Below the pieces are notes generated by a model that had not been told where the DNA came from, searched no databases, and was given only the letters and a program-made list of their open reading frames with translations. From assembly GCA_050185805.1 (NCBI GenBank), contig JBFWZB010000006.1:5818-69817 (forward strand): a stretch of 64,000 nt of DNA. The letters are read 5' to 3'. A program made the position numbers and the translations under genes. Below are positions 10,307-64,000 of this stretch, piece after piece (within the stretch, counting starts at the first letter, position 1; each line of letters starts with the position of its first letter). The stretch comes from Hyphomonadaceae bacterium (GTDB taxonomy: Bacteria; Pseudomonadota; Alphaproteobacteria; Caulobacterales; Aquidulcibacteraceae).

Positions 10307-11006
10307 TCGCGATATCGCGTGAGAGCGTCCAGCCGCGTCCGAGCGGTTCATAGCTGACGCCGATCGGCTCGAACCATTCTATCCCCGGCGCCCCGGCGCG
10401 AATTTCTTCCGGCGTCACCAGCTTGTCGTAATCGTGCGCACCCTCGGGCGCCCATTTCAGGATGCGTTCGGCGCCGATGATGGCGAACGCGCGCGCTTTT
10501 GGCGTGCGGTTGATGGTGGAGAGGATGATCAACCCGCCCGGCCTCACCAAAGCGGCGGCGGCGCGGAGGAAGGCGGGCACGTCCGCGACGTGCTCGATGA
10601 TTTCGAGCGCAGCCACCAGATCGAACGTTGCGCCTGCCTCGGCGAGGGCTTCGGCCGTCGTGCATTCGAAATCGATATTGAGGCCGGCTTGGGCGGCGTA
10701 AGTGCGCGCTGCGCCAATCGCTTCGTTGCTGGCGTCAATGGCGGTAACGCGCGCGCCCATGCGTGCGAGCGGCGCCGAAACCAGGCCGCCGCCGCAGCCG
10801 ATGTCGAGCGCCGCGAGGCCCGCAAGCGGCGTGCGCGCGGTCGCCGCGGGCGGCGCAAGCTCGCGCGTGACAACATCGCGAATATACCGCAGGCGGACCG
10901 GGTTGAGCCGGTGCAGGGCGCCGAACGGCCCCTCCGGATTCCACCATTCGCGCGCCAGTTTGCCGAATTTCTCGATCTCGGCTGGGTCCAGGGTGACGCT
11001 CGGCAT
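10272..11006 (-). CDS. ubiG: ubiquinone biosynthesis O-methyltransferase
   Basis: EIEKF..LA..WW, LHRLNPVR, LDIGCGGG, EIIEHV, STINRT. Confidence 0.95.
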   Translation of the reverse strand: MPSVTLDPAEIEKFGKLAREWWNPEGPFGALHRLNPVRLRYIRDVVTRELAPPAATARTPLAGLAALDIGCGGGLVSAPLARMGARVTAIDASNEAIGAARTYAAQAGLNIDFECTTAEALAEAGATFDLVAALEIIEHVADVPAFLRAAAALVRPGGLIILSTINRTPKARAFAIIGAERILKWAPEGAHDYDKLVTPEEIRAGAPGIEWFEPIGVSYEPLGRGWTLSRDIAINYLMAGRRPR

Positions 11007-11112
11007 AGGCACCACTTCGGGCCGGCGCACGGCGCGGTCAAGTCCGGTAGGCGAAGCGCTGGGGCCATGCTAAGGCCCGGCGGGCCTCGCGTCCGGAGCG
11101 GCTTTCGATCCC

Positions 11113-12372
11113 ATGTCTCGGCTGGTGATGAAGTTCGGCGGCACGTCAGTGGGCGACGTGGAGCGCATCGCGCGCGTCGCTCGCATCGTCGCGGCCGAAG
11201 CCAAGAACGGCCGTGGCATGGCGGTCGTGGTCTCCGCCATGGCGGGCGAAACCGACCGGCTGGTCGGCCTTGCGCGCGCAGCGGGCGGCGGCGAAGGCAA
11301 CCTCGCACCCGGCGGCGCAGGCTTTGACGACGAGTATGACGTTGTCGTTTCCGCCGGAGAGCAAGTCACAACCGGCCTGTTGGCGCTGGCGCTGCGCCGG
11401 CTCGGCTTCCAGGCGCGTTCGTGGCAAAACTGGCAGGCGCCGATCCTCACCGACGCCGCGCATGCAAAAGCTCGCATCACCGACATTTCGGCCGAGGCGT
11501 TGGGCGCTTCTGTCGACGCCGGCGTGATCGCGATCATTCCAGGCTTTCAGGGCGTGAGTGAGAACAACCGTATCACCACGCTGGGGCGCGGCGGTTCGGA
11601 TACGTCAGCGGTCGCGGTGGCGGCGGCGTTGAAGGCCGAACGCTGCGACATCTACACCGACGTCGACGGCGTCTACACAACCGACCCGCGCATCGTGCAG
11701 AAGGCGCGACGGCTCGACAAAATCTCGTACGAGGAAATGCTCGAGATGGCCTCGCTGGGGGCCAAGGTGCTGCAGACGCGCTCGGTCGAACTCGCGTTCG
11801 CGCATCGCGTGCCCGTGCGCGTGCTCTCAAGTTTCGTCGAGCCCGGCGCGGCCAATCCAGGCACAATCGTCTGCTCTGAGGATGAGATCGTGGAACGACA
11901 AGTCGTATCCGGCGTCGCCTATTCGCGCGACGAGGCCAAGATCACGCTGTTCGGCGTCGAGAACGCCATAGGCGCCTCGGCGGAGATATTCGCCCGCCTG
12001 GCCGACGCCAACATCAATGTCGATATGATCGTCCAGACCGACGCGCGCCAGGCCGGGCGCATCAATCTGATTTTCACGTGCCCGGAGCGCGACGCACCAC
12101 GCGCGGCCGAAACGATTCAGGCGGCGCGGGAGAAAATTCAGGTGGACGACATCCAAATCCGCCGCGATGTGGCCAAAGTCTCGGTCATAGGCATCGGCAT
12201 GAAGAGCCAGGTTGGCGTAGCGAAAACCATGTTCGCGGCGCTTGCCCAAAAAGGCGTCAGCATCGAAGCCATCGCCACTTCGGAGATCAAAATCTCCGTT
12301 CTGATCGATGCCGCTTACACCGAATTGGCGGTGCGGGCGCTGCATTCGGCGTATGGTCTCGACGCGATTTGA
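11113..12372 (+). CDS. lysC: aspartate kinase
   Basis: MKFGGTSV, VVVSAM, TTLGRGGSDTS, YTDVDGVYTTDP, two ACT domains. Confidence 0.97.
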   Translation: MSRLVMKFGGTSVGDVERIARVARIVAAEAKNGRGMAVVVSAMAGETDRLVGLARAAGGGEGNLAPGGAGFDDEYDVVVSAGEQVTTGLLALALRRLGFQARSWQNWQAPILTDAAHAKARITDISAEALGASVDAGVIAIIPGFQGVSENNRITTLGRGGSDTSAVAVAAALKAERCDIYTDVDGVYTTDPRIVQKARRLDKISYEEMLEMASLGAKVLQTRSVELAFAHRVPVRVLSSFVEPGAANPGTIVCSEDEIVERQVVSGVAYSRDEAKITLFGVENAIGASAEIFARLADANINVDMIVQTDARQAGRINLIFTCPERDAPRAAETIQAAREKIQVDDIQIRRDVAKVSVIGIGMKSQVGVAKTMFAALAQKGVSIEAIATSEIKISVLIDAAYTELAVRALHSAYGLDAI

Positions 12373-51282: not shown

Positions 51283-51555
51283 ATGCAGGCCGCCGAAGCA
51301 GAAGCCTTGGCCGCGATTAGGGGATTTCTGGAGGCAGCCAGTCTGCTCCCGCCGGATGGCTCGGTTACGCCGGATACGGCCCTGCTTGAGGGCGGCGCGA
51401 TCGACTCGCTCGGCATCCTGCAATTAACCGCTCACCTCGAAGACACGCTTGGTCTGCAATTCTCCGACGAAGATTTCCTGCCGGAGAATTTTGAAACCGT
51501 CGGCAGCCTGATGCGGTTTGCTGCGCGCCAGATCGAGGCGCGGGCGACGGCGTGA
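51283..51555 (+). CDS. stand-alone acyl/aminoacyl carrier protein
   Basis: G.IDSLG phosphopantetheine site; F.PENFETV..L tail as in DltC-like carriers. Confidence 0.9.
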   Translation: MQAAEAEALAAIRGFLEAASLLPPDGSVTPDTALLEGGAIDSLGILQLTAHLEDTLGLQFSDEDFLPENFETVGSLMRFAARQIEARATA

Positions 51556-53060
51556 TGTTGCTGCACCATCTGCTGGCCGCCCACGCGGGCAAGGACAAGA
51601 CGGCGATCGTCGATCGCAGCCGGCGCATGACCTACGCCGAATTCGCCGCAGCGGTGGAAGCGCAGGCCGCCCAGCTTGTCGCCGCCGGGGTGCAGCGCGG
51701 TGATCGCGTCGCAATTCTGCTGCCGAAGAGCATCGAGGAATGTGTCGCCATCTTCGCCGCCAGCCGCGCCGGTGCTGCGTTCGTCCCGATCAATGCCGAC
51801 CTGAAGCCGCCGCAAGTGCGTCACATCGTCGAGGATTGTGAGGCGCGCGCGCTGGTCAGCGCCGGCCCGCAACTTCACCAATTGGCAGACGCGCTGGCGA
51901 ACGTCTCGTTTCCCCTCACCATTGTCGATACCGGCGCGCCCATGCCGGAAGCGCCGCCGGCGCCGCCGTCCCCCTGCATCGGCGAGGACTTGGCCGCCAT
52001 TCTCTACACCTCCGGTTCGACCGGCCGCCCGAAAGGCGTGATGCTCAGCCACCGCAATCTGCTGGCGGGCGCGCGCATCGTGCGCACTTACCTCGGCATC
52101 GGCCCGGCCGAACGGATTTTGTCGATCCTGCCGTTCAGCTTCGATTACGGATTGAATCAGCTCACCACCGTGGTGGAGCAGGGCGCGACCATCGTGCTGT
52201 TCAGCTTTAAGTTCGGCGACGAAGTCGTGCGCGCTTTGGCCGAGCACGAGATCACCGGGTTGGCCGGCGTGCCGACACTGTGGGCCATTCTCACGCGCGC
52301 GGCGCCGAGCCTGGCCAAGACGCAATTGCCACATTTGCGCTACATCACAAATTCCGGCGGCGCCGTGCCGTCGAAAACCGTGGCGCGGCTGCAAGAGCTG
52401 CTGCCGACGACGCAGATCTTCCTGATGTACGGACTGACCGAGGCATTTCGGTCCACCTATTTGCCGCCGGATCAGGTCGGCGTGCGGCCGACTTCGATCG
52501 GCAAAGCGATCCCCGAATGTGAGGTGTTTCCCCTCACCGCTGATGGCCGCCGCGCCAAGCCGGGCGAACCGGGCATCCTCGTCCATCGCGGCCCGACGGT
52601 GTCGATGGGCTATTGGCGCCGCGAGGCCGAAACGGCTGCAGTGCTGCGCCGCAATCCGTTCACCAGCGCCCTCGAGGGCGGCGATGTCGTTTGCTGGTCT
52701 GGCGATCTCGTGACGCAGGATGAAGAGGGCTATCTTTATTTCGTCGCTCGCGAAGACGCGATGATCAAATCGGCCGGCTATCGCATCAGTCCGACCGAGG
52801 TCGAGGAAGTGCTGATGTCGACGGGCGCCTTCAAGCTTGTCGCCGTGATTGGCATTCCCGATGAATGGGTCGGCCAAAAGGTGCATGCTGTCGCCGTGGC
52901 GCTGCAGCCGGACGTCGATACGCGTGCGGTGCTGGCGCAGGTGTCGGCGCAATTGCCGTCGCACATGGTCCCCGCGCGTATCGAATTGGTCGAAACCATG
53001 CCGACGACGCCCAACGGCAAAGTCGATTATCCGAAGCTCAAGGCGGAGCGCAGCAAGTGA
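51552..53060 (+). CDS. AMP-forming adenylation enzyme (exosortase A-associated acyl-CoA ligase-like family)
   Basis: YTSGSTGRPKG, LPFSFDYG, MYGLTEAFRST, GD, GYRISPTEVE, PNGK. Confidence 0.9.
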   Translation: MMLLHHLLAAHAGKDKTAIVDRSRRMTYAEFAAAVEAQAAQLVAAGVQRGDRVAILLPKSIEECVAIFAASRAGAAFVPINADLKPPQVRHIVEDCEARALVSAGPQLHQLADALANVSFPLTIVDTGAPMPEAPPAPPSPCIGEDLAAILYTSGSTGRPKGVMLSHRNLLAGARIVRTYLGIGPAERILSILPFSFDYGLNQLTTVVEQGATIVLFSFKFGDEVVRALAEHEITGLAGVPTLWAILTRAAPSLAKTQLPHLRYITNSGGAVPSKTVARLQELLPTTQIFLMYGLTEAFRSTYLPPDQVGVRPTSIGKAIPECEVFPLTADGRRAKPGEPGILVHRGPTVSMGYWRREAETAAVLRRNPFTSALEGGDVVCWSGDLVTQDEEGYLYFVAREDAMIKSAGYRISPTEVEEVLMSTGAFKLVAVIGIPDEWVGQKVHAVAVALQPDVDTRAVLAQVSAQLPSHMVPARIELVETMPTTPNGKVDYPKLKAERSK

Positions 53061-54376
53061 GCGCGCAGCCAGCGCCCGGTGCGCTCGCCGCGTGGCTGAT
53101 GAGGCGCTACTACACCGCCGAGCAGGGCGAACTCAGCATCGGCGGCGTGCGCGTGTCTACGCTGGCGGACGCCTACGGCACGCCGCTCTATGTGTTCGAT
53201 GCGGCGCTGATGCGGCGCCGCTATCGTGAATTGAGCGCGGCGGTGCAGGGCTTCGCCGAAGTCTATTATTCGGTGAAGGCCAATCCCAACGTCGAAGTGG
53301 CGCGCATTTTCGTGGACGAAGGCGCAGGGCTCGAAGTGGCCTCCGGGCGTGAATTCCTCACGGCGCGCGCGGCAGGCTGTTCGGCTGAGCGCATTCTGTT
53401 TGCGGGCCCGGCGAAAGGCGAGGCCGAGCTCGCTTTGGTGGTCGAACAAGGCATCGGCGAAATTCACCTGGAGAGTTACGAGGAGATCGCCCTCGTCGGC
53501 GCCATCGCACGCCAGCGCGGTGTGCGCGTCAAGGCGTCGGTTCGGGTCAATCCTATCGCCGCCGCTCAGGGCGGTGCGATGCGCATGGGCGGAAAGCCGG
53601 CTGCGTTCGGGTTCGACGAAGAAGACTTGGCGCATGTCGTCGATGCGATCGGGCAAGAGCCCGGGATCGAACTGATTGGCGTTCATCTTTTCGCGGGCAC
53701 TCAAATCCTCGATGCCAATGTGCTGCTGACGCAATGGGCGCATGGCCTCGATGTCGCGGCGCGGCTGTCGGAAATGATTGGCGCGCCGTTGCACACGATC
53801 GATCTCGGCGGCGGCCTTGGCATTCCCTATCACGACGGCGATGCAAGCCTCGATTTGTCCGCCGTCGCCGCTGGTGCGCCGGCGCTGATACACGCCAAGA
53901 GCGCGCATGCCGGCATTCGCGACGCGCGCGTCATCCTCGAACCGGGGCGATTTCTGGTGGGCGAGAGCGGGCTTTACCTGATGCGCGTGCGCTCGGTGAA
54001 GCGGTCACGCGGTCAGCGCTTTGTTCTCGCTGACGGCGGCATGCATCACCATCTCGCCGCTTCGGGCAATCTCGGCCAGGTGGTGAAGCGTGATTACCCC
54101 ATCGTCGCCACCGCGCGATTGAGCGACGCGCCTGAAGACGCGGCCACATTGGTCGGTCCGCTCTGTACCCCGCTTGACACGCTAGGGCGCAAGGCCCTGC
54201 TGCCGGCGATGCAAGCCGGAGATTTGGTGGCGGTGCTGCAATCCGGCGCCTACGGGCTCACCGCCAGTCCACATGGCTTCCTCGGTCATCCTACGCCTGC
54301 CGAAGTCTTGGTCGACGGCGCCGCGCACCGGCTTATCCGCGCCGCGGGGCGCATGGACTTGTCCACGGTGGGTTGA
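53057..54376 (+). CDS. fold-type III PLP-dependent decarboxylase, BtrK-like
   Basis: YSVKANP (PLP Lys), RMGGKP..FG, HLFAGTQ, DLGGG, EPGRF, GPLCTPLD, GAYG; GTGA-coupled. Confidence 0.88.
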   Translation: MSAQPAPGALAAWLMRRYYTAEQGELSIGGVRVSTLADAYGTPLYVFDAALMRRRYRELSAAVQGFAEVYYSVKANPNVEVARIFVDEGAGLEVASGREFLTARAAGCSAERILFAGPAKGEAELALVVEQGIGEIHLESYEEIALVGAIARQRGVRVKASVRVNPIAAAQGGAMRMGGKPAAFGFDEEDLAHVVDAIGQEPGIELIGVHLFAGTQILDANVLLTQWAHGLDVAARLSEMIGAPLHTIDLGGGLGIPYHDGDASLDLSAVAAGAPALIHAKSAHAGIRDARVILEPGRFLVGESGLYLMRVRSVKRSRGQRFVLADGGMHHHLAASGNLGQVVKRDYPIVATARLSDAPEDAATLVGPLCTPLDTLGRKALLPAMQAGDLVAVLQSGAYGLTASPHGFLGHPTPAEVLVDGAAHRLIRAAGRMDLSTVG

Positions 54377-54533: not shown

Positions 54534-56351
54534 TTACAGCGGCGCTGAGAACGCTCGGCCACTCGGCCGATTGAGGATGAAGCCCTCGACCTCATAGATC
54601 CTTGCACCCATCGTTCCGAGCGGAATGCTCCACACGCGCACCCGAGACCAATCACCGTTCGGCGACACATCCTCCACCGGGACGTTTCGTGAAATTTCGC
54701 CTTCGTTGAGGAAATTTGCGTGGTCGACGACGATGATGCGCGGCGAAACGATTTGCGTGACGACTGAGAGGTGGCCTCTGTCGGCGTAGCGTAGGACCAT
54801 GACGCCGCCTACGCCGGGCGCACGGCTGCGCTCGTAGCGCCCCTCCGCTTGCGTCCACCAGGTGTTGGCGTTTCCGTAGAGTTCGATGCCCGTTTCGTTG
54901 CGAGCGAACGGAACCGTCTGCAAGCGCGCTCTGCGGTTCGACACGTATGCATTGGCCTGAAAGTCTGAAGGGGCGCCATCGAGTGCGGCGCCTCGGTTCT
55001 CCTGCGGCTCGCGAAGCGCGCGCACAACACGGAGGCCGGTAAAAAAGCGCGTGTTGTCGGTGTCATCGGTGGAGACATCATGCTGGGACGCCGAGCGAAG
55101 GAGGGCCCCGTCGAGCAGCCATGCGCCCCCTGCGACGCCGGCGGCTTGACAACCGCCAGCTTCCCCGGGCTCACAGGTCCACTCCTGCACATTGCCGTGC
55201 ATGTCGAAGAGGCCAAATGCGTTGCCAGGAAAGCTGCCGACCGGCGCCGGGCCTTGCGGTGGCGGACGCGTCGAAGCGCCGAGATAGGCGTTGTCCCACT
55301 TGTATTGCGCATCGCGTGGGGTGATGCGGTGGGTTCCCGCGAAGGCCGAAGTAGAGCCGGCGCGGGCGGCGTATTCCCACTCCGCCGCGGTCGGCAGGCG
55401 ATAGGTCTCACCGGTTCGGCGGCTAAGCCAATTGACGTAAGCGAGCGCGTTGTCGAGGCGGACGCCTGAGATTGGCGCCGATTGTTGAGTGGCGCCCGCC
55501 AACGGCTCGCAAGCTTCGTCTGCCACGCATGCATTCCATTCGCCGACGGTGACTTCGAACCGACCTATTGCGAATGGCGCCACCGGCTCCAATCGACGCG
55601 TCCGCCGAGAGGGTTCGCGGCCGATTTCGAGTAAAGGGGCGCCGCGGAAGAAATGTCCGCCCGTGAGCGGCACGATCTCAGGGCAAACGTCGCAATCGCG
55701 AAGCACCGCGCCACGTTCGCCACGCATAGCCTCAGGAACGTGCAGCGGAAGCACTTGCGCCGCGGCGAGCAACGACGCCTGCGCAAGGGGCCGGCCGTAC
55801 GGCGTCCATAGAGAATTGAGCAGGGCTTGGGAGATCGCGCGATCTTCCATTACGGCGCCAGACCAAGCGCTTGAGACGGGGGTAGCGCGAACCCGTCCCG
55901 CGCTGTCGGCGGTCACCAGCGATTGCCCGCCATCGATGAAGGCGAGGTGTTCGATTTGCCCAGTGTGCCCGCCGACGACGCCGACAAGCTCTTCGCCGCG
56001 ATAGATCAGCACGGCGCCGTTTCCGTCCGCGATTGCGCGAAGGCCGCCGCTGGAGACAGCGCCTTGGTGCGGCGCTGGAGCGCCGGTTTCAGCGAGGCGG
56101 GCCTCATCAAGCAGCGCGATCTGGGCAAGGGCGTAAATCAGGAGCGCTGCGGCGCCGACTAGACCGGCCAACCAAAGCAGCGGCCGCGTGAGACGGCGCA
56201 TGACCGAACGCCGCGCCTTGGGCGGCGCGTCCTCCGGCTTGCGGGCCCGGCGGCGAAATCGGGCTTCGTCGAGGCGGTTGCGTAGCGCCGCTCGCGCCGC
56301 CGCACCGCTCTGGCGCGGCTGCTCCCGTTGCGGCCCGACCTCAAAGACCAC
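54534..56351 (-). CDS. membrane-anchored protein: TM + about 2 WD40-like blades + FGE-sulfatase(SUMF1)-like domain + inactive CHAP domain
   Basis: GHTGQIEHLAF...LVTADSAGRV; RDCDVCPE, EVTVGEW, RLPTAAEWEYAARAG, NAFGLFDMHGNVQEW; LQTVPFAR...WW.QA.GRY...GH.SVV...HAN...DVS..DWS.VRVW. Confidence 0.85.
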   Translation of the reverse strand: MVFEVGPQREQPRQSGAAARAALRNRLDEARFRRRARKPEDAPPKARRSVMRRLTRPLLWLAGLVGAAALLIYALAQIALLDEARLAETGAPAPHQGAVSSGGLRAIADGNGAVLIYRGEELVGVVGGHTGQIEHLAFIDGGQSLVTADSAGRVRATPVSSAWSGAVMEDRAISQALLNSLWTPYGRPLAQASLLAAAQVLPLHVPEAMRGERGAVLRDCDVCPEIVPLTGGHFFRGAPLLEIGREPSRRTRRLEPVAPFAIGRFEVTVGEWNACVADEACEPLAGATQQSAPISGVRLDNALAYVNWLSRRTGETYRLPTAAEWEYAARAGSTSAFAGTHRITPRDAQYKWDNAYLGASTRPPPQGPAPVGSFPGNAFGLFDMHGNVQEWTCEPGEAGGCQAAGVAGGAWLLDGALLRSASQHDVSTDDTDNTRFFTGLRVVRALREPQENRGAALDGAPSDFQANAYVSNRRARLQTVPFARNETGIELYGNANTWWTQAEGRYERSRAPGVGGVMVLRYADRGHLSVVTQIVSPRIIVVDHANFLNEGEISRNVPVEDVSPNGDWSRVRVWSIPLGTMGARIYEVEGFILNRPSGRAFSAPL

Positions 56352-56435
56352 GCTTCGCTCCCGCCGCTGACGCGAACCCCTTCCACAATCTTAACGACTT
56401 GATAGGCTCCGCCCAGCGGAAAGTCGGGAGGGGGC

Positions 56436-57773
56436 TTGTCCTACGTTTTCATCAGCCACGCGAGCCCTGACAAGCCGCGCATAAGGCCTGTCGTCGATGC
56501 CTTAATGGCCGCGGGCTTCAAGATCTGGCTCGATAATCCAGCCGCAACCGGTTACCGCGCTGAGGAAATTAGAAAATTCTACCGCATCCGGGCAGGCGGC
56601 AGGTGGGAAGATGAGATCGACGACGCGTTGCGCGGCGCAGCGTGCGTTTTGGTCTGCTGGTCATCCAAAGCGGTGACGGAGAAAGCGCTCAAGCTTAAGG
56701 AGCGCAGCGTTTGGTTCAACGAGGCCTATTACGCCAAGACGGCGGGCACGATGCTGGCCTGCCTCGTCGAGCCGATAAACCCGGCTGAGTTGCCAGGCAC
56801 GCTTTCGGCGCAGCAATTGCCCGATCTGTCGCCAGAGCAGGATCGCGCCCGCTGGGACAGCATCATGGTCAGCGTGATCGACGACGTCCGCCGCAAGCTG
56901 CAACAGCAATTCGAATTGCGGCAGCGCACGCAGTCCACGCGTGATGTGTTTGCGCCGTATCTCGCTGATCGCAGCGCGCAAGAAACGCTCGTGCATGAAT
57001 CGCTAGGCGGGATGCTTTCCGGCGGTGGCGTCAAGCCACTCTTCGTCACGGGGCCCGACAACGAGCGGTTGGACGAATTTCTGACGCGCCTTCGCATGAC
57101 TAGCGCCGAGGTGCTGCCGGATTCAAGCGTGTGGGAGGATTGCGAGGTCGAGTGGCCGGTCGGCGTGCACGCGCGGGTGTTCGCGCAACACTATCGGCGT
57201 AACCTCGCGCGCGCTTTGAAGCTCCAGGGCGAAGCCGAGGACAGCGCCATCGCCGCCGATCTGGAGCGCCGCGGCCGGCCAATCGCGCTCGTACACCGTA
57301 TGCTCGCAAAAGAATGGGGTCCCGACGAGGGCAAGCGCGTGCTTGCCTGGTTGGAATTCTGGGGCGGCGTGGCGCGCGTCAGCGCAAAGGTGAAAGCAAT
57401 TCCGCTCCTGCAACTGAAAATGCCCTCGGCGCGGCCGGGCTGGAAGCGGTGCCCGCCGGGTGCTTCGGGCGGCCGCGTCGGCAATCGCGGCATCTGGCGC
57501 AGTGTCGAGAGTGTTGCCAAGCGAGCTACACGGCAGAACCTGCTGAGCTTCACCCCATTGCCGGTCTTGTCGCCCATCAGTCATGGCGACGCCGACCGTT
57601 GGCTTAATCGGCTCTATCGCGAGCCGGGCGCAGAGCGCACACGTATCGAAGAAACGATGGATGCGATCTATCGGAAGGGACGCGCCAAACGTCACGGCTT
57701 GGCGCACAAGGACTTCGCAGCGTTGGTGACGCCGCTGTTCGAAGGTGCGGGACGGCAAGGGGGACAAACTTGA
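56436..57773 (+). CDS. TIR domain + inactive STAND (iSTAND)-like protein
   Basis: TTG start with GGGAGG RBS; VFISHA..D, IWLD, W..EI..AL, VCWS, WFNE (TIR_2-like); C-terminal PYLADR..Q, V.GP..E..DEF..RL, VEWP, L.PI...D...W. Confidence 0.8.
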   Translation: MSYVFISHASPDKPRIRPVVDALMAAGFKIWLDNPAATGYRAEEIRKFYRIRAGGRWEDEIDDALRGAACVLVCWSSKAVTEKALKLKERSVWFNEAYYAKTAGTMLACLVEPINPAELPGTLSAQQLPDLSPEQDRARWDSIMVSVIDDVRRKLQQQFELRQRTQSTRDVFAPYLADRSAQETLVHESLGGMLSGGGVKPLFVTGPDNERLDEFLTRLRMTSAEVLPDSSVWEDCEVEWPVGVHARVFAQHYRRNLARALKLQGEAEDSAIAADLERRGRPIALVHRMLAKEWGPDEGKRVLAWLEFWGGVARVSAKVKAIPLLQLKMPSARPGWKRCPPGASGGRVGNRGIWRSVESVAKRATRQNLLSFTPLPVLSPISHGDADRWLNRLYREPGAERTRIEETMDAIYRKGRAKRHGLAHKDFAALVTPLFEGAGRQGGQT

Positions 57774-58783
57774 GCGCCTATCCATATTTTGCGCGCGGAC
57801 TTTCCGGCGCCGCCTCAACACGGGCGGAAGAGATTCCGACGCTCGATCGAAGTCAGGTGGAAGCGCCTGAAGCTTACCTGCCGCATCCCGATCTTTCGCA
57901 TGCGGTGAATGTGGCGCTGATCACGGGCATGCCGCTCTTGCTGACGGGCGAGCCCGGGACGGGCAAGACGCAATTGGCTTACGCGCTGGCGCATGAGCTC
58001 AATTGCCACGTGCTGAAATTCGAAACCAAATCCACCAGTCAGGCGCGCGATCTGTTCTACACATACGATGCGCTGTCAGCGTTCAAGGTGCGCGACGCCG
58101 CCGATCCGCGTCAGTTCATCCAGTATCAAGCGCTGGGGCAGGCGATCCTTGAGGCGTTTCCCGGCGACAACCCTCGCTTGGCCCGCTTGTTGCCGGCTGG
58201 CGCCCCGCATGCTGGGCCCCGCCGTGCGGTAGTGCTGATCGACGAGATCGACAAGGCGCCGCGGGATTTTCCCAACGATCTCCTCAATGAAATCGACAGA
58301 TTGTTCTTCCGCGTTCCGGAATTGCAGAACGCTGGCTCCCCGGGGGCGGAGCCCAATGAAGAAGGAGTAGCGCAAAGATATCGGCCGATCGTCATCCTGA
58401 CGTCCAATTCCGAAAAAGGTCTGCCCGACCCGTTCCTGCGGCGTTGCGTCTATTTCGACATACCGTTCCCCACCAGCGAAGAGCTCGCCAACATCGTTGC
58501 GGCGCGCGTCGCGGGTGTGCGGTCGACCGATCCGCTCGTCGGGGACGCGCTCGACCTGTTCCAGAAACTCAGAGGTGGAGACCGCTCGCTATCGCTGAAG
58601 AAGAAGCCTTCCACGGCGGAGCTGCTGAACTGGATTCAGATGCTGCTCCACCGTGGCGTCAATCCGGGACAGCGGCTTGTGACGCAAAAGCCGCTGGTGC
58701 TGCAGACGCTGTCGACCTTGGTCAAAAACAGCGACGATCGCCGTGAGGCGACGGCATTCATTCAGGATCGCTGGGGCGCTTGA
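57770..58783 (+). CDS. MoxR-family AAA+ ATPase
   Basis: PLLLTGEPGTGKT, DLFYTYDAL, VVLIDEIDKAPRDFPNDLL, TSNSEKGLPDPFLRRC, KKPSTAELLNW. Confidence 0.93.
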   Translation: MSAYPYFARGLSGAASTRAEEIPTLDRSQVEAPEAYLPHPDLSHAVNVALITGMPLLLTGEPGTGKTQLAYALAHELNCHVLKFETKSTSQARDLFYTYDALSAFKVRDAADPRQFIQYQALGQAILEAFPGDNPRLARLLPAGAPHAGPRRAVVLIDEIDKAPRDFPNDLLNEIDRLFFRVPELQNAGSPGAEPNEEGVAQRYRPIVILTSNSEKGLPDPFLRRCVYFDIPFPTSEELANIVAARVAGVRSTDPLVGDALDLFQKLRGGDRSLSLKKKPSTAELLNWIQMLLHRGVNPGQRLVTQKPLVLQTLSTLVKNSDDRREATAFIQDRWGA

Positions 58784-58789
58784 CGCAAC

Positions 58790-61700
58790 ATGCCGGAGGC
58801 GTTTGACAGCCAAGAGGCGGACCTCGGCGACCAGATCTTTGGTGTGTTCGACGAGGCCGGCGGAAGCCTGAAGTCCGCCGGGCTTCTGGATCAGCTGCGC
58901 GCCGCGGGATTGCAGATCGGCGCGCGGGAGCACAACGCCGTTGGCGTGTTAGTGGCGGCGCTGCTTGGCCAGAGTTCGCCGCCGCCGAAGCTGCAAAGTT
59001 TGCACGCGCAGATCGCCCCGCTGGTGGCGCGCACCCCGCAGGAACGGGAAACGTTCTCGCGCGTCTTCAACGCGTTCGCGGGCGTTGATACAGGGTCCGC
59101 GCGCGCGGCGGGTGTTTCCTCCGACGCGCTGCTGGCCGGCGACGCTCGCCGCGGCCGATTTGCGCGCCTTCTGGCGGCGCGCAGCACGCGTATCGCCGCG
59201 GTGGTTTTGGGCGCGACCACGCTCATCGCCGCCTTGGCCTTCCTGTTGTTGCGCACGCCGCCCCAAGAACTGACGAGTGATGCGCCACAACAGGCCGTGC
59301 CTGCGCCCGCTGCGATCTCGGTTCAGGCAGAAGCATCGACAAGTGAGGGGGCGCTGGCCCCTGCGGCTTCGGCGAGCGTGAGCAAAGTAGCGCGCATCGC
59401 GCGCACCTATGCGGGTGCGCCTACGCTGGCGGAGCTTGCCGAAGGGTTAGCCGCGGAATCGCCGATCGAATGGGACGCCAGCGCTTATGAAGCGCGCTTG
59501 CACGAGCTTACGGGATTGCCGCGCCATCAGCCGCTCGCGCTGTACGAGACGGCCGGTTCACGCCCCAACAGCGCTGCGGTGTGGGCGCGGCTCGCGCGCG
59601 CCATCGACCGCGTAGAAACGCCGGGACGGGAATCGTCCTATGCGGCCTATCTTAATGCAACCGCGCCGATATTGGGCGATGACCCAGCGGACCCGCCAGG
59701 TGGAAGCGCCTGGTCCAGTGCTGCGGCGCCGGCCAGACGTCTCGAAGCAGCCATTGCGCAACGACTGGGAGCCACGGAGGCGTTGCCTACGGAGCGCAAC
59801 GAAGCCATAGCGCGCGTCCGCTCAATCATGCGCGAGCATATCGACGCGCACATTATCGAGCGGACTCTTGCGAGCGCTACAGATCCGCGCATTCGGCGTG
59901 TATTCCCCGAACCATTGTACGCAAGCCACGCTGACATTGAGCGGGAGCGCGCTATTCCGCCGATCACGCCCTGGATCGTCGCTAGCGCGCCGTTGCTGAG
60001 TTTGGGGGTTTGGCTGTTGGCTGGGTTGGCGCGGCGCAAGGCGTTTCTGCGCCGACGGCGGCCGGAAACTTCGCCTTTGCACACCGATCTTGTCACCGAT
60101 GCGGTGAGCTTGGCGCGCGACAGCGAGGTCGAGTACCTTCGCATCGGCAGGCGGTTGCAGCGCCGAACCGCGCGTGAGTCCGATCGGCTCGATATCGAGC
60201 GAACCGTCGCTGCGACGATTGCGGGAGGCGGCCATCTGGTGCGGCCGGTCATGGCGCGCACCCGCGCTTTGCCGGAATACCTGGTGCTGATCGAGCGTCG
60301 GGGAGCCAACGATCAAGATTATGCGCGGATGCGGGCGATGCTACAGCGCCTGCGCGATATGATTTCTATCGAAGTGTTCTCCTATCAGAGCGAGCCGTCG
60401 CTGCTTGAGCCGGACGGCGGGGGCCGCGCGGTGGCGATAGAGCGGCTGATGGCTGCTTTTCCGAATCATCGCTTGATCGTGTTGGGGACCGGCGCGGGGT
60501 TTCTCGACCCGATTCACAAGAAGCCGCTCCCTGGCGCAGAGCGGCTGACGCACTGGGAGCGGCGGGCGCTGCTAACCCCGCTGCCGCTTTCGGAATGGGC
60601 GCGCGAGGAATATTTGCTGGCGAGGGAGCTGGCGATGCCTGTTGGGCGCGCCACTCCCGAAGGATTGTCGCATCTCGCCGAGCTGTTGGGACTTGAGGGC
60701 CGAGGGGAAGAGGAAAATCTCGATCCCGCGGGCGATGGATTAGCGCGGCCTTTGCCGGAAGCGTTCCGTTTGCACCCGCAGCGTTACCTCTACAACGCGC
60801 CCCCGGACGACCACTCGATCGCGCAGGTGCTGCAAGACCTGCGTAATTATCTGGACCCTGCGGGTTTCGATTGGTTGACCGCGCTCGCAGTCTATCCGGC
60901 GACGCAATGGGATTTGACGCTCTATCTGGGCCTGACCCTGAAAGCGCCGCACGGCGTCGAAGGGCGGCTGGAGCCGCTCTACAGCGAACGGCGCATCGGG
61001 GCGCTGACGCAGCTGCCCTGGCTACGCGAGGGTTGGCTGCCGGATTGGCTGCGCCGGGCGCTAATTGGTGCGATGACGCCGATGCGCCGGCGCGAAGTGC
61101 GCGCAACCTTGGCGCGCCTGTTCAATGCCGCCGATGTCGCCGACAAGGCGCTGCCGGACCTAAACATTCGCATGCAGATCGCCCACGAGGCGCTGACGAA
61201 AACGGCGCCCGACAGCGTCTTCGACGATGAGGTGCTGCTCGATTTCATGGCGCGGGGCCGGGTTGAGGATTTCGAGCTACCCGAGAACGCTCTGCTTGAG
61301 CGCATCATGCCGCGCGAATGGCGCAAGCGGATCGGTTGGCCGGAACTGGCAGGCGCTGCAGTCGCGGCGATCTACGCTGCGGCGGCGTTCATCATGGCGC
61401 CCAAGCCTGCTGACGGGGGTTGGTCAGGCCATTCATGGCTGCCGTTGCTGACGCTAGGGGGCTTGGCCGCGCTTGGCCTAGCGGCGCTGCATGGGCGCGA
61501 CGTCTATCGCAGAGGCCGCGCGCTTTTGGAGCGCGCGGCGATTTATGCGGTGGCGATTGCGCTTACGGCGCTGTTCATTGCGGCGATGCCTTCGGTTGAG
61601 GGATTTGTACTTGCGCGTGCGCCGGAATTGGCCGCGTTCTATCCGTCGGGCCTAGCGCTCCAGAGCATCTTCGCGCTTGCCGCTCTCGGCTTAGCGAGGA

Positions 61701-62887
61701 AGGTCGCGGAAACGGCTGGTGTCTTCGTTCCGCGAGGTGAAACGGGGCCGGGGCGGCGGTTTGCGCTGCGCTTGCTTGAGGCGCTGGCGGTGGCGGTGGC
61801 GGCCAATGCGATCATGATCGTTGTCGCCGTAAATGCCGGATTGGACTTGGCGGCAGCGCAAGCAAATACATGGTTGGCGGCGGTTTATGTCTGCATTCTC
61901 TGCGTACTATTGTTTGCAGCGGGCGTCGTTGCTGCGCGCTTCGCGCCGGAGCGTTTGGCGCCGCCGCGCGATGCGCAGCAACAGGCGCGCGTCTGGCGAT
62001 GGGCGTCGCCGCTGGCGGTAGCGGCGGCGCCGCTTGCCATTGCCGGTCTCCTCTACACGGCGTTGAACGCCACCCACGTTGTGCTGCCGGATGGTGGGAG
62101 CTTGCGCGTGCGCGACGCCGACATCGTCGCCACCACGCAGAGGGGCGATTTTTTCGCCACAGGGGGCGCCGATGGATTGGTTCGCGTTTTCGCCAGCTCG
62201 AAATTGCGTCGGCCGCTCGTTGCGGAAGCGCTCGGCGGCGGCGCGATCACGTCGCTCGTGTTTCAGGAGCAGACGGCGGGGCAGCCGAGCTTAGGCGTTG
62301 TCTCTTACGATGGCGCCGTGGAGATGATCGACGCTCGAACCGGCGCCCGGACACTGCTCGCGCGCGTCCATAGCGTGTCGACGCCGCCACTCTTGGCGCT
62401 CGATTCTGCCGGCGGTTGGTTGATTGCGTTCGAGGACGCATTGGGCGTGCAGCAAGTTGTCGATCAAGCCGGCGCCACGGCGGTGGGCGGTCCTGCGGCG
62501 ATCACGGCGCTTCAAGCAATTGGGCCAGGATTATACGCGGTGGGAACATTGGCCGGCGACATTGACTTACTTCGCTCCGGCGCGGACGGATTGCAGTGGG
62601 ATACGCCGGTCGAACAACGGACGGACCCTGATCTCTCCGCCTATGCGGGCGTCTGGGCGCGGGACGACGCCGCATGCAGCGACGGCGCCGTGACAATACG
62701 TGCAGAAAATGGCGCACTCGTCGTTCAGGCCGCTGATCTCACGTCGGTCGAAACGCCGATCCGATACGACGGCGACTGGCTCGAGACGGTGTCACAGAGC
62801 GTCGTGCGTGGATATCGGCTGGAGGGGCCCAGGCTTCGCTTCCGTGACAGCGCGGGACGAGAGACGGAGCTCGTCCGATGCGCTTAG
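58790..62887 (+). CDS. MoxR-associated vWA-like polytopic membrane protein with C-terminal partial WD40 propeller
   Basis: LRAAGLQIG N-terminus, LDIERTVAATI, PEYLVLIE, ALLTP.P..W..EE, WL.ALAVYP...WDLT, LPWLREG; about 9 TM; about 4 WD40-like blades; terminal two-Cys beta domain. Confidence 0.8.
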   Translation: MPEAFDSQEADLGDQIFGVFDEAGGSLKSAGLLDQLRAAGLQIGAREHNAVGVLVAALLGQSSPPPKLQSLHAQIAPLVARTPQERETFSRVFNAFAGVDTGSARAAGVSSDALLAGDARRGRFARLLAARSTRIAAVVLGATTLIAALAFLLLRTPPQELTSDAPQQAVPAPAAISVQAEASTSEGALAPAASASVSKVARIARTYAGAPTLAELAEGLAAESPIEWDASAYEARLHELTGLPRHQPLALYETAGSRPNSAAVWARLARAIDRVETPGRESSYAAYLNATAPILGDDPADPPGGSAWSSAAAPARRLEAAIAQRLGATEALPTERNEAIARVRSIMREHIDAHIIERTLASATDPRIRRVFPEPLYASHADIERERAIPPITPWIVASAPLLSLGVWLLAGLARRKAFLRRRRPETSPLHTDLVTDAVSLARDSEVEYLRIGRRLQRRTARESDRLDIERTVAATIAGGGHLVRPVMARTRALPEYLVLIERRGANDQDYARMRAMLQRLRDMISIEVFSYQSEPSLLEPDGGGRAVAIERLMAAFPNHRLIVLGTGAGFLDPIHKKPLPGAERLTHWERRALLTPLPLSEWAREEYLLARELAMPVGRATPEGLSHLAELLGLEGRGEEENLDPAGDGLARPLPEAFRLHPQRYLYNAPPDDHSIAQVLQDLRNYLDPAGFDWLTALAVYPATQWDLTLYLGLTLKAPHGVEGRLEPLYSERRIGALTQLPWLREGWLPDWLRRALIGAMTPMRRREVRATLARLFNAADVADKALPDLNIRMQIAHEALTKTAPDSVFDDEVLLDFMARGRVEDFELPENALLERIMPREWRKRIGWPELAGAAVAAIYAAAAFIMAPKPADGGWSGHSWLPLLTLGGLAALGLAALHGRDVYRRGRALLERAAIYAVAIALTALFIAAMPSVEGFVLARAPELAAFYPSGLALQSIFALAALGLARKVAETAGVFVPRGETGPGRRFALRLLEALAVAVAANAIMIVVAVNAGLDLAAAQANTWLAAVYVCILCVLLFAAGVVAARFAPERLAPPRDAQQQARVWRWASPLAVAAAPLAIAGLLYTALNATHVVLPDGGSLRVRDADIVATTQRGDFFATGGADGLVRVFASSKLRRPLVAEALGGGAITSLVFQEQTAGQPSLGVVSYDGAVEMIDARTGARTLLARVHSVSTPPLLALDSAGGWLIAFEDALGVQQVVDQAGATAVGGPAAITALQAIGPGLYAVGTLAGDIDLLRSGADGLQWDTPVEQRTDPDLSAYAGVWARDDAACSDGAVTIRAENGALVVQAADLTSVETPIRYDGDWLETVSQSVVRGYRLEGPRLRFRDSAGRETELVRCA

Positions 62888-64000
62888 TCTTCGGAGGTGC
62901 GTTTCTCGCGCTCGTCGCGTTTTCTGTTCTAGCTGCTGCGCAACAGCAGCCTACAGCACCGCCTCGTGCCGAGGGCTCAGGCATTTTGCCCGAGGCACTC
63001 CGGGCGTCTCGCGACCGCTTGACCACCGAACTGGAGGCGCGCGAACGCGAGTTCGGCGCGGCGCTGGAGACTCTCCGCACCCAGGCGGATGCGCTGGCGA
63101 GGCGGCCAGCGGCGCCGCAATCATCCGCCTTTTATGGCGGGCATTATGGCGCCGTGCGCTCGATGTCGCGGAACGAGCAAGGGCAGCTACAAGTGCTGAT
63201 GGTCGACGGGACAATTATTGGAGGCGAGGCGCGCGAAGGAAGGCTTGAGCTGCGCACGCCAGTGCGGCGCGAAGCGGACTTGGCGCTTGGCGCGCCTGTT
63301 GCTTGGCGGCGTGCGCAAGCAACGCCGATGCCGAGCGAGCCACCACCAGCAGTGACAAATGTCGCGCCGCCCGCGGAAGAGCAGCCCGCTACGCGCCTTG
63401 CCTCGACGCCCGCGCCGGCGGATCCGATCGGTGTAAGCGTGGGGCCTGCGTTGGCGCAGATCGGGGATCGCAGTTTTGAAGGCAGCTATGCTGTCTTTGC
63501 GCGCGGCATGGAGGCGGGGGTTTTCACGTTCAATTTCAGTCAAAGCGGCGACAACTATCAGATTGGGGCGGAACGGCGTTCAACGGGCTTGGCCGCGACG
63601 CTCCTCAACCGCAGCCAGGATTACACTTACTCGGTGCAAGGAACGGTGGCCGCTGAGAATGGCTTGCAGCCCAGCGCCTATCAGCACCAAGGCGGGCGCC
63701 GCCGCGAAGATCGGCCCAATGGGCGCTTGGTGCGGGCCACCTTTAGCGCCGATGACGTGACCACGACGTCGGAACCGGCCGGGATGGGCATGGGCGAACC
63801 GCCCGCCACTGCGCAACAGAGGCGCAACGTTATCGATCAACTGACCGCCATCGCAACTCTCATCACTGCGTCCGGCGATCCGTGCAGCCGGACGCTTCGT
63901 GTTTATATGGATGGACGTTCGCGCTTCGATTTCGTGCTGACGCCCAACGGGCGTGTTAACGTCAGCACATCGGCTTATCGTGGAGAAGCGTTGCGCTGCA
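62878..64000 (+). CDS. exported protein: signal peptide + coiled coil + single WD40-like blade + Pro-rich linker + DUF3108-like domain (partial, runs off window)
   Basis: ATG 62878 overlaps upstream stop; stop-free to the window end: MRLVFGGAFLALVAFSVLAAAQ...GGHYGAVRSMS...SYAVFARG...LQPSAY...IDQLTA...CSRTLRVYMDGRSRFDF...GEALRC; not in ORF track. Confidence 0.8.
   Translation, partial: MRLVFGGAFLALVAFSVLAAAQQQPTAPPRAEGSGILPEALRASRDRLTTELEAREREFGAALETLRTQADALARRPAAPQSSAFYGGHYGAVRSMSRNEQGQLQVLMVDGTIIGGEAREGRLELRTPVRREADLALGAPVAWRRAQATPMPSEPPPAVTNVAPPAEEQPATRLASTPAPADPIGVSVGPALAQIGDRSFEGSYAVFARGMEAGVFTFNFSQSGDNYQIGAERRSTGLAATLLNRSQDYTYSVQGTVAAENGLQPSAYQHQGGRRREDRPNGRLVRATFSADDVTTTSEPAGMGMGEPPATAQQRRNVIDQLTAIATLITASGDPCSRTLRVYMDGRSRFDFVLTPNGRVNVSTSAYRGEALRC

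Follow-up and report, generated by a model that had tools for sequence, protein, structure and literature searches.

A candidate WD40 propeller shared by three envelope proteins of a membrane-spanning MoxR-vWA locus

Can three proteins encoded side by side, none of which carries enough WD40-like blades to close a ring, build one propeller between them? This question is raised by a locus at the end of a 64,000-nucleotide stretch of DNA (hereafter called the window) from a Hyphomonadaceae bacterium (NCBI GenBank assembly GCA_050185805.1, contig JBFWZB010000006.1, positions 5,818 to 69,817 of the forward strand). The locus comprises five linked genes, with P0001 on the minus strand divergent from P0002, P0003, P0004 and P0005, all on the plus strand. 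A closed ring on a single chain is absent, as four blades reside on P0004, about two on P0001 and one on P0005. The best explanation, offered tentatively, is a five-gene envelope-spanning system in which these blades form one 4+1+2 ring. For the way in which MoxR-von Willebrand factor A (vWA) ternary systems might sense their surroundings, the clade described here gives a concrete, testable physical model. The five genes are as follows:

54534..56351, minus strand: P0001, 605 amino acids, in which a transmembrane helix is followed by about two WD40-like blades and, past a helical linker, by FGE-sulfatase and CHAP-like domains
56436..57773, plus strand: P0002, with a TIR domain (residues 4-135) and an iSTAND-like core, predicted to be the effector or signal generator in the cytoplasm
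57770..58783, plus strand: P0003, an AAA+ ATPase of the MoxR type (Walker A, GEPGTGKT; Walker B, DEID)
58790..62887, plus strand: P0004, 1365 amino acids, polytopic, with a divergent CoxE-like vWA region and a C-terminus predicted to be periplasmic
62878..64000 and past the window end, plus strand: P0005, an exported DUF3108 protein of 435 amino acids in full, ending at window-equivalent position 64185

An earlier note on the window, made from its letters alone, had counted 4+2+1 blades by eye on P0004, P0001 and P0005 and had proposed that they complete one propeller in trans. The count holds, with the blades of P0004 modelled (predicted local distance difference test score, pLDDT, 87.8), those of P0001 recognized by profiles, and that of P0005 recognized by homology to a fifth blade present in cis in relatives.

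The largest share of the putative ring belongs to P0004. Hydropathy and the positive-inside rule predict nine transmembrane helices in this protein, with the N-terminus inside and the C-terminus outside. This topology would place the N-terminal domain and the core at residues 415-852 in the cytoplasm, and the loop at residues 154-391 and all residues from 1093 in the periplasm. One helix of the transmembrane bundle (about residues 955-975) is under the hydropathy threshold. The principal parts are as follows:

60077..60949, plus strand: conserved vWA-like core of P0004, residues about 430-720, matching VWA_CoxE at E 0.026, with the metal ion-dependent adhesion site (MIDAS) replaced
61346..62065, plus strand: predicted seven-helix transmembrane bundle, residues 853-1092, from hydropathy and the positive-inside rule, putting the C-terminus in the periplasm
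62123..62602, plus strand: four WD40 blades, residues about 1112-1271, an open arc in an AlphaFold2 model
62648..62878, plus strand: small 8-strand beta-barrel with a Cys pair, residues 1287-1363, from the AlphaFold2 model

The AlphaFold2 model of P0004 residues 1093-1365, built with 16 aligned homologues, has a mean pLDDT of 87.8, with the blades at about 90. It comprises 16 strands in four 4-stranded blades, a short helix, and then the 8-strand barrel. The four motifs singled out in the earlier note fall in blades 1 to 4, on B/C or A strands. In structure comparison the blades match WD40 propellers at Z 15-17; on Apaf-1 they superpose on consecutive blades with Z 17.1 and a root-mean-square deviation (rmsd) of 2.5 Å over 158 residues. 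A homologue, P0006, matches the Pfam family Beta-prop_THOC3 at E 6.3e-6. The barrel with its Cys pair is found in P0004 and its sister P0006 only. Pfam gave no match over the whole of P0004, nor for the barrel, the N-terminal domain or the 154-391 loop, and Atlas feature leads for the barrel (DUF3876, lipocalin-like and staphostatin-like) were all below 0.9.

Homologues of P0004 are plentiful, and few carry this C-terminal region. A word-index search with the P0004 C-terminus returned the query alone. An exhaustive search of representatives yielded 2,938 P0004 homologues, most of which share the cytoplasmic core only, and the segment past the last transmembrane helix is common to about 16 of the top 150. 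When the blade profile was run against 400 genomes of the class, generic WD40 matches were the only ones obtained.

An indication that blades on separate chains belong together comes from P0005. This protein carries a predicted signal peptide and two further recognizable parts:

63139..63318, plus strand: blade-5 module of P0005, residues 88-147, recognized by profile homology to the cis module and ending in an LALGxxVxW tail
63484..64000, plus strand, cut by the window end: DUF3108 domain, residues 203-416, a Pfam match

To judge from profile homology, what P0005 carries as its one blade has been split off from the P0004 propeller, because the equivalent module lies in cis in most relatives, which amounts to Rosetta-stone evidence of fusion and fission. 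A module of about 65 residues follows right after blade 4 in P0007, P0012, P0013, P0014, P0016, P0017, P0020, P0024 and P0027, and displays the pattern GRARxL ... A.GDDG.vL ... LaLGPAVxW. Alignment by hhalign of the two trans copies (P0005 and its orthologue P0156) with eight cis copies gives 95.9% and E 6.5e-9. A hidden Markov model (HMM) built from cis copies only matches P0005 among the open reading frames (ORFs) of the locus (E 6.8e-7), and over the whole 3-Mb genome it yields one match, which is again the P0005 module (E 3.2e-6). An AlphaFold2 model of a cis homologue (P0012, residues 1060-1325; pLDDT 87.4, predicted template modelling score, pTM, 0.84) comprises five 4-stranded blades, of which the module is blade 5; its LALGPAV tail is of low confidence.

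Insertions are present between blade 4 and the module in some proteins. P0009, P0010 and P0011 have a whole extra WD40 propeller at this point, and in P0004 and P0006 the barrel stands here, with a gene boundary and then a signal peptide behind it. In P0007, the nearest of the fused relatives (51% identical), the module comes straight after blade 4. At the locus in the window, the P0004 stop codon (TAG, 62885-62887) and the P0005 ATG (62878) overlap by 10 nucleotides, with GGAG just upstream, and the sister locus L004 has the same 10-nucleotide overlap and the same split. The split is most likely a derived gene fission, present in these two loci. The blades probably mediate hetero-association of at least P0004 and P0005. 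At another locus (L055:2-1303, minus strand) a weak blade-5-like match (E 2e-4) occurs in a gene downstream of the two-blade partner described below and on the partner's strand; the vWA gene of that locus is cut by the contig end, and blade 5 may have been relocated to a different gene there.

The geometry of the models bears on the gap that five blades would leave. The five-blade model of P0012 matches 7-bladed WD40 proteins, among them U3-55K, WDR61 and a Thermomonospora WD40 domain, with Z 19-20 and an rmsd of 2.7-3.0 Å over 217-232 residues, and superposes also on Sec13 and the 5-blade fragment assembly of PDB 6r60. Because this fit to 7-bladed propellers is near full-length, the model is best read as an open arc into which about two further blades would fit and not as a closed 5-ring. 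A closed ring of four or five blades was considered and ruled out, as the models superpose over their whole length on 7- or 8-bladed rings. The earlier impression that none of the segments is a full ring is thereby borne out, the models being open arcs with 7- or 8-bladed curvature. Two conserved stretches, one N-terminal to blade 1 and the other the LALGPAVxW tail behind blade 5, have low confidence in the models, and might resemble edge strands that pair in trans. Matches in the structure search also include PDB 2pm6 and 3f3f, which are Sec13-type complexes.

Arcs of this kind might instead be closed by copies of themselves. P0004 arcs could pair (4+4 = 8, or 5+5), P0001 fragments could form trimers or tetramers, and the blades would then serve to multimerize each component, which agrees with the theme of superstructures in these systems. 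The four-blade model fits the designed half-propeller Ika4, which homodimerizes, equally well (Z 15.4, rmsd 2.3 Å, 140 residues), and both the four- and the five-blade models fit 6r60, in which two 5-blade fragments are assembled. Furthermore, MoxR ATPases act as oligomers, and multimeric assemblies are stressed by Kaur et al. (PMC7159879). Such homo-oligomeric closure leaves two observations unexplained, namely that most loci retain blade 5, be it in cis or in trans, and that a two-blade partner is restricted to this clade. A membrane-tethered 4+4 pair would also need two nine-helix transmembrane bundles abreast, which is possible and adds constraints. Overall, closure by identical arcs is judged improbable.

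The single ring of three different chains, which we favor, would draw its last two blades from P0001. The parts of this protein are as follows:

56115..56183, minus strand: transmembrane helix, residues about 57-79, hydropathy 2.27, predicted N-in from the positive-inside rule
55872..56063, minus strand: two putative WD40-like blades, residues about 97-160, from profile comparison
55686..55871, minus strand: conserved helical linker (motif LWxPxGxP...AQVLPLHxPE) that joins the blades to the FGE domain
55020..55685, minus strand: FGE-sulfatase (C-type-lectin-like) domain, residues 223-444, Pfam E 1.5e-32
54714..54920, minus strand: CHAP-like domain, residues 478-546, Pfam E 1.7e-7

About 64 residues after the transmembrane helix align with the stretch from blade 1 strand B to blade 2 strand C of the vWA family (hhalign 85%, E 6.4e-6), and P0001 thus appears to carry about two WD40-like blades. 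Pfam WD40 is sub-threshold on this segment (E 0.18), and a single-blade HMM matches it weakly (E 0.45). A profile of the segment from five orthologues retrieves many genuine WD40 proteins, plus FGE or TIR+FGE proteins, and the segment is kept in the orthologues P0155, P0157, P0159 and P0160. An HMM of the linker matches partner proteins only and none of about 150 vWA homologues, so that the linker is, at the level of sequence, diagnostic of the partner family. A word-index search with the P0001 N-terminus returned the query alone, and a search for related loci with P0001 alone gave no relatives. The start of P0001 in the database gene call is an internal ATG (Met 51, about 56201).

The periplasmic placement of all three segments, as the earlier note had predicted, fits hydropathy, the positive-inside rule, the P0005 signal peptide and the Cys pair of the barrel. 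With five blades in an arc and two on P0001, a single ring is the simplest model because 5 + 2 = 7. Since all blades of a propeller are oriented alike, the ring would have its two N-terminal membrane anchors on one and the same face.

If the partner blades belong to the same ring, the partner should accompany the arc. In related loci (labelled L), a transmembrane helix, two blades and the linker are encoded divergently, upstream of the TIR gene. The partners are as follows:

L004: P0155, without a CHAP domain
L007: P0157
L009:3-935, minus strand: P0160, with an N-terminal cytoplasmic TIR domain ahead of the transmembrane helix, two blades and FGE
L011:3168-5330, minus strand: P0159, with TIR, multiple transmembrane helices, two blades and FGE
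L005:4319-5505, minus strand (the P0021 locus): two frames, broken between the blades, with a tail rich in transmembrane segments and not FGE
L042: an 819-amino-acid trypsin protein whose N-terminal region is unannotated
L043: an N-terminal cytoplasmic region, a transmembrane helix, two blades and FGE
L044: the two-blade module, then more WD repeats

The break in the L005 partner is either a frameshift or an assembly error. The partner genes that the earlier note expected in homologous loci are indeed kept, being present in 14 of the 14 distinct loci that have the 4-blade module and readable upstream DNA. A second sample consisted of 80 loci from species-representative genomes, found via the cytoplasmic core and scored if at least 5.5 kb of upstream DNA was available; it overlaps the first, as L047 equals L042, L050 equals L011 and L051 equals L005. 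Here the partner occurs in seven of seven loci with the blade module versus one of 50 without it, the sole module-less locus with a partner being L053. No partner accompanies a betaproteobacterial relative (L100), in which about 6-7 blades in cis were counted by eye. The loci with module and partner belong to one alphaproteobacterial clade (Hyphomonadaceae, Rhizomicrobium, Filomicrobium and others).

Around these blades the other domains vary. The constant parts are the four blades, the fifth (either in cis or in trans) and the two partner blades with their linker, and the variable ones include caspase, S11, M23, amidase, OmpA, FGE, CHAP, DUF3108, trypsin and TIR. The two-blade module itself is attached to FGE, FGE+CHAP, TIR+FGE, trypsin, extra WD40 or transmembrane domains, and for these attachments the exchangeability claimed in the earlier note stands. 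Retention of blades and linker while attached domains vary is the pattern expected of a docking interface, and the blade fragments most likely serve for hetero-oligomerization. In L009 and L011, the partner can be a second transmembrane TIR signaller, beyond a periplasmic accessory.

Several results weigh against a single seven-blade ring, in addition to the equally good fit to Ika4. Comparison by hhalign of the blade-5 module with the four-blade profile detected no similarity, and the module is recognized as a blade only through AlphaFold modelling of a homologue. For P0001, the two blades are recognized through sequence profiles. The blades do not add up to seven in all homologous loci. In L053 (8756-12880, plus strand) about three divergent blades are seen by eye, the blade-5 module is absent, and the FGE partner has two blades (about 3+0+2); blade-5 profile matches were absent from L048 and L051; and the L044 partner holds further WD repeats. 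The loci are not independent, and the co-occurrence counts must be read as a clade-wide trait and not as a statistical association. Finally, closure by a hetero-complex is an inferred step. A three-chain prediction with the P0004 C-terminus, the P0005 module and the P0001 N-terminus scored 0.00, and as the partner fold is uncertain and controls were not run, this value speaks neither for nor against binding. In L053, the blades of the vWA homologue are followed by a proline-rich linker and then a beta-rich domain.

Given that the hetero-complex is inferred, it is conceivable that no assembly is obligatory. The blades might be remnants or independent open beta-sheet surfaces for binding, with synteny reflecting shared function only. 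The frameshifted L005 partner and the reduced L053 suggest that decay is tolerated. Against this view stand the conservation of blade and linker sequences while neighboring domains are swapped, the regular, high-confidence blades of the models, and the exposed edge strands of open propeller arcs, which are normally capped. Independent blades are considered unlikely.

A less drastic departure is that only part of the ring is shared. P0004 and P0005 would rebuild the five-blade arc, and the P0001 blades would bind elsewhere (for example, on the 154-391 loop or the barrel) or tether the protein near the membrane, with the ring left open or closed by something else. The partner's two blades and linker were never seen fused in cis to the 4+1 arc among about 150 vWA homologues, so the fusion and fission evidence is limited to blade 5. 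Furthermore, the cis five-blade unit is modelled confidently alone (pTM 0.84), and L053, L048 and L051 fall short of seven blades. A two-blade WD40 fragment is not, as a matter of general knowledge, expected to be stable by itself, however, and the partner is strictly linked to the clade with blade-bearing vWA proteins, whose five-blade arc has 7-fold curvature and a gap of two blades. Such a partial assembly is regarded as somewhat unlikely, and that all three chains form one seven-blade ring is held to be somewhat less likely than not, although it is the likeliest of the readings considered.

If the three-chain ring does form, the following arrangement might result. TIR-iSTAND (P0002), the MoxR ATPase (P0003) and the vWA-like core of P0004 would occupy the cytoplasmic side. 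On the periplasmic side, the P0004 C-terminus would present an incomplete four-blade propeller, blade 5 would be supplied by the translationally coupled, Sec-exported P0005, and P0001 would add two blades, linked via the conserved helical linker to its FGE-sulfatase and CHAP-like domains. In the simplest arrangement, the 4+1+2 blades would make one seven-bladed ring beside the membrane, through which the vWA transducer would be tied to variable domains, sensors or effectors, in the periplasm. Ligand binding by the docked domains, or damage to them, might then be passed through the transmembrane bundle to the vWA/MoxR pair and on to the TIR-iSTAND effector. More speculatively still, the seven-bladed periplasmic ring can be pictured as a modular socket with swappable plugs (FGE lectin-like, CHAP, DUF3108, OmpA, trypsin or TIR), whose occupancy or distortion would be the signal for the MoxR/vWA pair to engage TIR-iSTAND; this picture is doubtful enough to be treated as a working idea. 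The direction of signalling, the notion of bait domains and a TIR NADase output are speculation by extrapolation from the literature. The earlier note's idea that disturbing these domains sets off TIR activation dependent on MoxR is likewise speculative, although it agrees with Kaur et al. (PMC7159879).

The cytoplasmic genes indicate the class to which the locus belongs. P0002 matches TIR_2 (Pfam, E 4.3e-14) and, below the cutoff of 24 bits, iSTAND PF19995 (E 0.025, 15.4 bits); its positional orthologues in L007, L009 and L011 have unmarked precomputed PF19995 matches. P0003 matches AAA (E 1.4e-10) and AAA_5 (E 4.6e-10) and has intact Walker A and B motifs, with its assignment to the MoxR clade resting on genomic context. 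For P0004, VWA_CoxE matches only the N-terminal part of the core (E 0.026), a PDB sequence-profile search with the core found nothing meaningful, and the same family scores at or below 0.01 in eight of 22 P0004 family members (best 3.3e-4). At the position of the MIDAS motif DxSxS, P0004 reads E-R-R-G-A. On the basis of the partial VWA_CoxE match, the family scores and the empty PDB sequence search, the 415-852 core is tentatively classified by sequence as a divergent vWA-like domain that is without the MIDAS motif.

The combination of a TIR with a candidate iSTAND core, MoxR, a putative CoxE-like vWA protein with transmembrane segments and cell-wall-associated domains marks the locus as a probable member, in membrane form, of the iSTAND-type MoxR-vWA ternary conflict systems of Kaur et al. 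(Kaur, Burroughs, Iyer and Aravind, eLife 2020; PMC7159879). There, the role of the ternary systems is deduced from domain architecture alone, and iSTAND systems are said to include transmembrane segments and cell-wall-associated domains (section 20). Probably shared with those systems are the TIR on a candidate iSTAND-like core, a MoxR protein without VMAP-type extensions, a putative CoxE-like vWA protein with N-terminal transmembrane segments, and a variable C-terminus with cell-wall-associated domains preceded by transmembrane segments. FGE/FGS is the commonest associated domain, and the occurrence in Proteobacteria is common to both. Unlike the systems covered in that source, the vWA protein here has nine predicted helices and an incomplete WD40 arc predicted to be periplasmic, the FGE domain resides on a separate, divergent membrane protein with two blades of its own, and one blade is on a third, exported protein. 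The conserved fourth (and fifth) component and the blade split are not described in the parts of Kaur et al. considered here (PMC7159879).

Another ternary subtype, in section 22 of the same paper, has a propeller of roughly four blades lying C-terminal to its vWA domain, and its association with a propeller on the third component is proposed (PMC7159879). As described in that section, this subtype lacks a conventional effector and its P-loop often reads GXXXTAKS, whereas the present locus has GEPGTGKT and a TIR-iSTAND effector, and its own propeller would be periplasmic and follow a transmembrane bundle. In Sec13, six blades make up an open propeller, which a single blade from Sec31, Nup145C or Sec16 closes in trans (PMC2922654). 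In these complexes, as in Seh1-Nup85, an open WD40 ring is closed by a partner blade through velcro-type strand sharing (PMC2922654). They are eukaryotic, cytoplasmic or nuclear, and built from two chains as 6+1, whereas three chains, 4+1+2 blades and a bacterial periplasm are proposed here. The earlier note knew of no description of such an arrangement, which must be narrowed in light of the propeller association proposed in the cited section and of the eukaryotic propellers completed in trans.

Oligomeric propeller fragments offer a further comparison. The designed Ika4/Ika8 and the 5-blade WRAP fragments (PDB 6g6q and 6r60) comprise two to five WD40-like blades, cannot close by themselves and form rings by assembly. 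They are homo-oligomers, either designed or built of identical blades, whereas the fragments considered here occur naturally, differ from one another and come from three linked genes. Experimental evidence that a propeller can feed a MoxR-vWA pair comes from the Esr threat-sensing pathway of Actinobacteria, in which a surface WD40 propeller sensor acts through the pair on a defence response (bioRxiv 10.64898/2026.09.08.750141). The Esr system differs in its monoderm host, filamentous immunoglobulin-repeat sensor and kinase/FHA output, and it has neither a TIR domain nor a split propeller.

The iSTAND MoxR-vWA ternary class is thus known, and what is new here is the conserved two-blade partner and the fissioned fifth blade. 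If the three-chain ring is real, it would be without precedent both as a prokaryotic propeller completed in trans and as a propeller made from three chains. It would also account for the coupling, across the membrane, of events in the envelope to a TIR effector in the cytoplasm, and would provide a rule for finding cognate sensors, namely to look for orphan one- or two-blade WD40 fragments beside arcs. If it is not, the two-blade and linker module still constitutes a previously unlisted fourth component of the membrane iSTAND subfamily.

The surroundings of the locus help to define its limits. P0003 overlaps P0002 and lies 7 nucleotides upstream of P0004. The contig beyond P0005 continues with a convergent Cys/Met pyridoxal phosphate (PLP) enzyme, then a rhodanese gene and further genes of housekeeping type. 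P0005 is therefore the last gene of the operon, which holds no more blades. The genes past 64000, which the earlier note had suggested might add some, therefore contribute none, P0005 stopping at 64185 with housekeeping genes next. No P0004 homologue was found among 60 relatives from the same genus or order, and the locus is for this reason regarded as accessory.

Three further observations concern sequences outside the system. The sole other WD40 protein that blade profiles find in the genome is an unlinked 810-amino-acid frame with several generic WD repeats (G000:C57, about 10358-11719, plus strand). Just upstream of the system (51552-54376) lie genes for an AMP-binding enzyme and for a PLP decarboxylase of fold III, which belong to a separate cassette. 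On the other side, at window-equivalent positions of about 70300-72020 (L002:6120-7841, minus strand), a 573-amino-acid frame combines Glycos_transf_2 (residues 11-100) with DNA photolyase and FAD-binding domains; the fusion is an unusual one, or else the ORF start has been over-extended.

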